NCBI RefSeq assembly: GCF_016026235.1 | Contig: NZ_CP065613.1 | DNA: 64,000 nt | Strand: one strand, 5' to 3' | Source of the DNA: Escherichia coli | GTDB taxonomy: Bacteria; Pseudomonadota; Gammaproteobacteria; Enterobacterales; Enterobacteriaceae | In this document: positions 38,678 to 38,700 of the stretch, one piece after another | Layout: each line of letters opens with the position of its first letter | How positions within the stretch are numbered: the stretch's first letter is position 1 | Notes under the pieces: generated by a model | What the model was told of the DNA's origin: nothing | Database searches by the model: none | Seen by the model: only the letters and a program-made list of their open reading frames with translations | Position numbers and translations under genes: made by a program

Positions 38678-38700
38678 ATATGGACAATAGTTGTCCATAT
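38678..38700. promoter_or_regulatory. perfect 10-bp inverted repeat (ATATGGACAA-tag-TTGTCCATAT), candidate operator upstream of the helicase-nuclease gene
   Basis: Palindrome about 55 bp upstream of the ATG at 38754 in an AT-rich leader. Confidence 0.35.

Follow-up and report, generated by a model that had tools for sequence, protein, structure and literature searches.

A perfect palindrome within the predicted promoter of the type II Mokosh gene mkoC of Escherichia coli: a possible host-protein site with lineage-specific symmetry

The mkoC locus of the pheV island

The stretch of DNA considered here, referred to as the window, consists of 64,000 nucleotides from Escherichia coli (assembly GCF_016026235.1, contig NZ_CP065613.1) and includes the pheV island of E. 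coli and Shigella. The island is organized in the order yqgA, tRNA-Phe gene (35325-35400), split P4-type integrase gene, strong hairpin, about 420 bp of non-coding DNA and mkoC. The 1170-residue product of mkoC is recognized by PADLOC as MkoC over its full length (E = 0, residues 1-1168) and contains the Pfam domains AAA_11, AAA_12 and PLDc_2. It combines in one protein a COG1112/Upf1-like SF1 helicase and, C-terminal to it, a PLD nuclease, the organization that characterizes Mokosh type II. Its nearest solved helicases are Upf1, Smubp-2, DNA2 and Sen1, and no structure of MkoC itself was returned by a sequence search of solved structures. The features distributed between the integrase fragment and the gene are the following:

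38304-38334, no strand assigned: G+C-rich hairpin with a 13-bp stem, directly 3' of the integrase fragment
38402-38665, minus strand: open reading frame of 87 codons, the sole sizeable one in the spacer
38678-38700, no strand assigned: perfect inverted repeat ATATGGACAA-tag-TTGTCCATAT, with 10-bp arms and a 3-nt spacer
38678-38687, left arm ATATGGACAA; 38688-38690, spacer TAG; 38691-38700, right arm TTGTCCATAT
38744-38747, plus strand: Shine-Dalgarno sequence AGGA, 6 nt 5' of the ATG
38754-42266, plus strand: mkoC, Mokosh type II, 1170 amino acids, Upf1-like SF1 helicase with a C-terminal PLD nuclease

The hairpin at 38304-38334 is likely the terminator of int and, since it probably fills that role, the palindrome is not needed for it. 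The 87-residue reading frame belongs to no family in Pfam or PADLOC and was rejected on this ground as a divergent regulator; a homologous stretch in a related locus (L002) is annotated as a psiE pseudogene remnant. Several other peculiarities are visible in and around the island. The P4-type integrase gene beside tRNA-Phe is interrupted by the IS110-like element ISEc11 (window approximately 36600-38020), an arrangement found, at 80% or more of the query, in 2 complete E. coli genomes only. Farther upstream, an IS110-family transposase gene (30228-31403) is accompanied by direct repeats of its 3' end spaced by 568 bp (31100-31399 and 31668-31967, followed by a third, partial copy from about 32106), at least 300 nt of the repeat being 100% identical. 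Among the related loci, several mkoC copies (L005 3001-3519, L011 3001-4008, L003 6420-8168) are inactivated and yet keep an intact leader; the cause is a premature stop for the UBA7338 MAG and C. koseri NCTC10786, and an IS3 insertion for CFT073.

A previous sequence-only reading of this DNA had described a perfect 10-bp inverted repeat about 55 bp upstream of the start codon, a description which is accurate since the repeat ends 53 nt before the ATG of mkoC at 38754. The arms stop at 10 bp, where an A at 38677 facing a G at 38701 blocks any extension. No second copy exists in the 64-kb window with up to three mismatches allowed. If arms of 10 bp or more and loops of up to 10 nt are considered, the window contains ten perfect inverted repeats, the palindrome included, against 0.63 +/- 0.73 expected from first-order Markov simulations; because of this approximately 16-fold excess, a chance origin of the 10-bp palindrome is unlikely. 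The other nine repeats are mostly G+C-rich, terminator-like hairpins, from which the palindrome differs by its A+T-rich composition and its place in front of a gene. Folded as RNA, it gives a hairpin of -11.2 kcal/mol (z = -2.7). Two further symmetrical sequences of the window deserve mention, namely a 28-bp perfect palindrome devoid of spacer (TAAATTTAATTTCC|GGAAATTAAATTTA, 46581-46608) within the reading frame of a 1285-residue serine-protease autotransporter (44737-48594), and the longest perfect inverted repeat, with 16-bp arms and a 10-nt loop, at 61812-61853.

Of 5,426 complete E. coli genomes, 931 contain the region upstream of mkoC. Approximately 129 of the 5,426 contain the exact 45-mer with the perfect palindrome, a further 269 differ from that 45-mer by one or two mismatches, and 143 possess the leader type represented by locus L001. 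Additional loci were drawn from species-representative genomes, metagenomes and IMG/VR, the latter search yielding 3 homologous loci only. Together with a leader of about 145 bp, mkoC is inserted in at least four contexts (pheV/pheU, leuX, selC and a P4-like satellite): behind an integrase in the pheV/pheU context of the window and CFT073, in the leuX island of strain 83972, and in the cargo region of the satellite. The predicted promoter would form a portable cassette of about 105-145 bp that moves with the gene. The flanking genes differ among all four contexts, so that no regulator gene is co-inherited; the statement, already made from the sequence, that no regulator lies adjacent also holds.

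Leader conservation and the predicted promoter

The leader was aligned across 24 distinct Enterobacterales sequences whose proteins are 62-97% identical; homologs below about 50% identity have leaders that cannot be aligned and stand outside the 24. Invariant blocks consist of TTGC, TGGACAAT, the AT of CCAT, the T-A-A within TTTATA, and AA-CAA. Inside TGGACAAT, seven of the eight positions are invariant and the C is found in 23 of 24 leaders, the remaining one having an A and reading TGGAAAAT. TTGC is preceded by an A-rich tract, AAACAAA, and lies 16-17 nt 5' of TGGACAAT in the 24 leaders, and the leader as a whole has a G+C content of 38%. From this organization we infer a sigma-70-type promoter with the following elements:

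38660-38665, plus strand: predicted -35 element TTGCAT (TTGCGA in most relatives, TTGC in 24 of 24)
38683-38688, plus strand: predicted -10 element GACAAT, within the left arm and TGGACAAT, 17 nt after the -35 element (16 in relatives)
38695-38697, plus strand: predicted transcription start, placed 7-9 nt after the -10 element, within the CAT triplet of the right arm

In a scan with a position weight matrix, TTGCxx-16/17-GACAAT is the top sigma-70 candidate in 17 of the 24 leaders and among the top three in all of them, and it is the sole sigma-70-like candidate located at a conserved alignment column. The -10 element has the A at position 2 and the T at position 6, and the spacing falls within 16-18 nt. 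The match to the consensus amounts to 7/12 for TTGCAT-17-GACAAT and to 8/12 for the TTGCGA-16-GACAAT of relatives, and a generic promoter scan with a cut-off of 9/12 did not flag the mkoC promoter. In the CAT triplet, the AT is invariant and the C present in at least 90% of the leaders. On these predicted coordinates, the palindrome would cover about -18 to +5 of the mkoC promoter. A search for start-site data was negative, no matching sequence occurring in the supplements of the paper on transcription starts of Shigella M90T, and the literature yielded nothing on Mokosh transcription. To our knowledge, little has been learned about the expression of single-gene defence systems such as Mokosh II. 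Other promoter assignments were considered and discarded: the GG-N10-GC spacing of sigma-54 is, by eye, off by one and not conserved, sigma-32 and sigma-24 boxes were also rejected by eye, and TGGACA taken as a -35 element for TATATT would require a spacer of 20-22 nt, which is too long, with inconsistent downstream partners.

The perfect symmetry itself is not conserved. Of the 24 leaders, 15 have a broken inner A-T pair and 20 a broken inner C-G pair; the two outermost pairs fail to form in 12 and 11 of them. Near-universal retention is limited to the T-A, G-C and G-C pairs (TGG/CCA) and to the innermost two A-T pairs, leaving TGG..AA/TT..CCA as the dyad that survives among relatives, and the left arm is invariant mainly because the -10 element lies in it. 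At the outer pairs, the window clade has A-T and T-A where the L016/L009 clade has T-A and C-G, complementarity being maintained with other bases; as evidence of covariation this is weak, only about five independent clades being represented. The sequence-only reading had likened the palindrome to a dimeric repressor operator and suggested that the gene is under dedicated control, to be doubted should the palindrome not be conserved among orthologous loci and its mutation leave expression unchanged. With the inner pairs broken in most of the 24 leaders, the palindrome is mostly not kept and a kernel only persists, which goes a long way toward refuting dedicated control and leaves it unsupported. 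In favour of an operator, the repeat is non-random and sits on the predicted -10/start region, where one could act; against it, the symmetry is not retained in orthologs.

Other repeated motifs populate these leaders. A second inverted repeat, TCAATG-gattt-CATTGA (window 38722-38738), is overlapped by AAATC-aatg-GATTT (38719-38732), and relatives possess other small palindromes around a conserved AAATCAA, such as GAAATCA-a-TGATTTC in L007 and L015; pair counts detect no covariation in these second leader palindromes. A dyad TTGCGA-N6-TCGCA(A/T), located about 95-75 nt before the ATG in leaders of the 62-70% identity range (L006, L007, L015, L016, L017, L019, L027, L028, L029 and L046), covers the predicted -35 element and the spacer, contains a GATC (Dam) site and is absent from the lineage of the window. 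Finally, the metagenomic MkoC homologs L038 and L039 (46% identity) exhibit TTGACAAT about 64 nt before the ATG, a position similar to that of the enterobacterial TGGACAAT, in leaders which are otherwise not alignable.

Origin of the perfect symmetry and the cloned ortholog

Depending on the lineage, the dyad is more or less complete. All ten pairs are formed in the window, strain 83972 and E. albertii, nine in UTI89 and in a selC-island copy (..CCATAC), and eight in CFT073, while a 6/10 form, ACGTGGACAA-tag-TTATCCATAC, is found in the outgroups and in the L001-type leaders of E. coli, Citrobacter and Enterobacter. Since the outgroups share CGTGG...TTA with the L001 type, the state of the window is derived, and comparison of the sequences identifies the perfect form as a recent derivative of one E. 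coli/E. albertii sublineage. The window differs from the ancestral type by four substitutions in the arms, all of them transitions (of the types C>T, G>A and A>G) and each converting a mismatch into a Watson-Crick pair, an outcome with a chance of about 0.03 if transitions only are placed at random in the arms; the argument is weak, as only about five independent clades are available, and one substitution of the CFT073 type runs in the opposite direction and breaks a pair. The pattern suggests that perfection was reached either by templated correction of a quasi-palindrome or by selection for symmetry and tighter binding. If the dyad were inert, the locus would still provide a clean natural example of a quasi-palindrome that has been perfected.

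An experimental anchor is available for the degenerate form. In the study of Millman 2022, defence systems were cloned with their native intergenic DNA, and SG150, a verified type II Mokosh from E. coli 5-366-08_S1_C1 (Table S2), defended E. coli K-12 from its native promoter. The SG150 clone includes about 330 bp of upstream DNA, and its leader is identical, the degenerate 6/10 ACGTGGACAATAGTTATCCATAC included, to that of locus L033, the protein of which is 96% identical to the MkoC of the window. Since SG150 defends K-12, this leader works as a promoter in the absence of both a perfect palindrome and any regulator encoded by the island, and the perfect palindrome is not required for expression or defence. 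Natural variation supplies alleles in which 6, 8, 9 or 10 positions are paired, a ready test series for the contribution of the dyad.

Candidate host proteins, competing explanations and related systems

What persists across the Enterobacterales is a 15-bp imperfect dyad, GGACAAT-n-TTRnnCC. Two sites for global host proteins are suggested by motif matches:

38682-38696, no strand assigned: conserved kernel of the dyad, GGACAATAGTTGTCC, in agreement with the Fis core consensus GnnYAnnnnnTRnnC
38714-38723, no strand assigned: TCGATAAATC, matching the H-NS motif TCGATAAATT at 9 of 10 positions, in the predicted 5' UTR

In 20/24 leaders the Fis core consensus (PMC8682772) is found at one and the same alignment column, its overall frequency in the window being 0.81 matches per kb, and the site at 38682-38696 also has the A/T-rich centre typical of Fis sites. 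Against the extended consensus GNtYAaWWWtTRaNC (PMC2816674) the kernel scores 10-11 of 13, values reached by 0.19% and 0.03% of window positions, and distant relatives score better than the perfect palindrome; few of the sequences matching the degenerate consensus bind Fis tightly (PMC2816674). The conserved kernel may be bound by a global protein encoded by the host, Fis being the best candidate as judged by motif. The match to the high-affinity H-NS motif TCGATAAATT (PMC2094087) is limited to E. coli-type leaders, distant relatives having CAACGAAATC at this place. A number of other binding sites were discarded. The DnaA box TTGTCCAC reaches only 7/9 and is lost in the window, the IHF site AATCAAnnnnTTT lacks the final purine, and LexA, CRP, FNR and 434-type operators have, by eye, the wrong spacing. 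The P2/P4 Ogr/Delta box TGT-N12-ACA is restricted to L001-type leaders, those of the P4-satellite context and of the SG150 clone, and absent from the window and from distant relatives; its centre (L001 5987-6004) lies some 49 nt 5' of the predicted start.

The reading we favour, with a probability of roughly 45% for the whole, is that of a conserved imperfect dyad embedded in the mkoC promoter as a host-protein site, and perfected in a single lineage. It takes the observed position of the repeat, the observed pattern of conservation and the motif matches as a starting point. The palindrome would be part of the mkoC core promoter, its left arm containing the -10 element and its right arm the start, and a global host DNA-binding protein, Fis being the best candidate, would occupy the kernel over -10/+1. 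The bound protein would damp the transcription of a potentially toxic helicase-nuclease according to the growth state, further silencing may come from the H-NS-like motif immediately 3' of the kernel, and the sharpening to 10/10 would be a recent lineage-specific change due to template correction or to selection for tighter binding. A cassette that plugs into Fis and H-NS would explain how such an enzyme is tolerated after its transfer into many Enterobacterales. The eight-base invariance of TGGACAAT in the alignment exceeds the needs of a -10 hexamer or of Fis alone, and the conserved right-hand CAT could be simply the start site. A bolder version, which we hold to be rather improbable, makes of the kernel, TGGACAAT...TTRnnCCAT, an operator common to all enterobacterial type II Mokosh cassettes and read by a host factor or by MkoC; Mokosh expression would then respond to the growth state or to infection, and the perfect palindrome of the pheV and leuX islands would represent a "super-operator" allele ensuring tighter repression of the helicase-nuclease.

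The most serious competitor, unlikely as it may be, attributes no role of its own to the dyad, which would be a chance quasi-palindrome over the -10 element and start of a weak constitutive promoter, improved by neutral intrastrand template switching. The confinement of the perfect form to a single sublineage, close relatives of which show 9/10, 8/10 or 6/10 pairs, the defence afforded from a native promoter with the 6/10 form and the possibility of reading the conserved bases as a -10 element plus a start site all agree with this explanation, as do the four transitions, which turn A-C or G-T mismatches into pairs just as template switching would. It accounts less well for the near-invariance of TGGACAAT, which extends to the G and C by which the hexamer departs from the consensus, and for TT and CCA kept in register, all of which goes beyond the needs of a weak -10 element, or for the 16-fold excess of perfect repeats of at least 10 bp in the window. 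A dedicated dimeric repressor keeping the defence gene off until a signal is received, the idea originally attached to the palindrome, is clearly less probable. In its favour, the symmetry is complete in the window and covers the predicted -10/+1 region, a classic place for a repressor, and the outer pairs of the window and L016/L009 clades differ and yet stay complementary; a regulator, however, is neither adjacent nor co-inherited in the four contexts, the 87-residue reading frame has no family, the inner pairs are broken in most orthologs so that the two half-sites are not both conserved, the 64-kb window offers no second site, and no island gene is needed for the activity of the cloned ortholog in K-12.

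Control at the RNA level, in the form of a sense-strand hairpin acting either as a weak terminator or insulator against upstream read-through or as a stem in the 5' UTR with an effect on translation or on the stability of the mRNA, has a small probability. A terminator scan does flag the 10-bp stem followed by GGTGGTTTTATATT, the predicted folding energy amounts to -11.2 kcal/mol, and substitutions in pairs 48-51 preserve G-U or A-U pairing on the plus strand. The RNAalifold consensus of the 24 leaders, however, is a stem of just 4 bp (-1.0 kcal/mol) devoid of compensatory pairs, only three of the ten pairs are G-C, the T-run is not conserved in relatives, and the integrase gene has a strong terminator of its own at 38304-38334; moreover, the hairpin would not be transcribed from the mkoC promoter if the start lies, as predicted, in the right arm. 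There is no match to an Rfam family, a scan of 38250-38900 with Rfam 15 (E <= 10) returning only noise, with a best E of at least 1.3, far below gathering scores. Autorepression, in which the N-terminal domain of MkoC would bind the dyad, is hardly credible. It would provide control without a separate regulator gene and explain why the leader travels with the gene, but Pfam recognizes no DNA-binding domain in residues 1-270, and comparison of the AlphaFold (AF2) model of residues 1-280 (pLDDT 79) with the PDB reveals no significant fold match, the best E being 0.74.

With respect to known systems, the palindrome is a further instance of a familiar type of feature and the result is incremental. 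Like a Rho-independent terminator, it consists of a stem-loop followed by a T-rich stretch and is flagged by a consensus scan, but instead of a G+C-rich stem running directly into a U-tract and conserved after a transcription unit, it has an A+T-rich stem separated by a 5-nt gap from the T-run, is not conserved and lies in front of a gene. The WYL-domain proteins BrxR and CapW are repressors of defence islands that recognize palindromic operators and are encoded beside them. The mkoC palindrome resembles these operators as a promoter-borne inverted repeat of an anti-phage system and in the idea of a toxic effector kept low until infection, and differs from them by the lack of an adjacent or co-inherited regulator and by half-sites that are not both conserved. 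The correction of quasi-palindromes by template switching, known as the Ripley model, has been studied in E. coli; the passage from 6/10 to 10/10, in which each change makes one arm the complement of the other, resembles it, whereas the existence of 9/10 intermediates demands more than one event, and the CFT073-type change of opposite direction speaks against pure correction, selection being also possible. Fis acts in Enterobacterales as a growth-phase-dependent repressor or modulator. Compared with its sites, the left half of the kernel is far more conserved than Fis would need, and the window version is a longer, 23-bp perfect palindrome. In common with Fis sites, the kernel is degenerate and spans 15 bp, its dyad showing G/C at +/-7, YA/TR at +/-4/3 and an A/T-rich centre; like those that overlap core promoters, it lies on the predicted -10/+1 region, and it is found in all enterobacterial hosts of the cassette.
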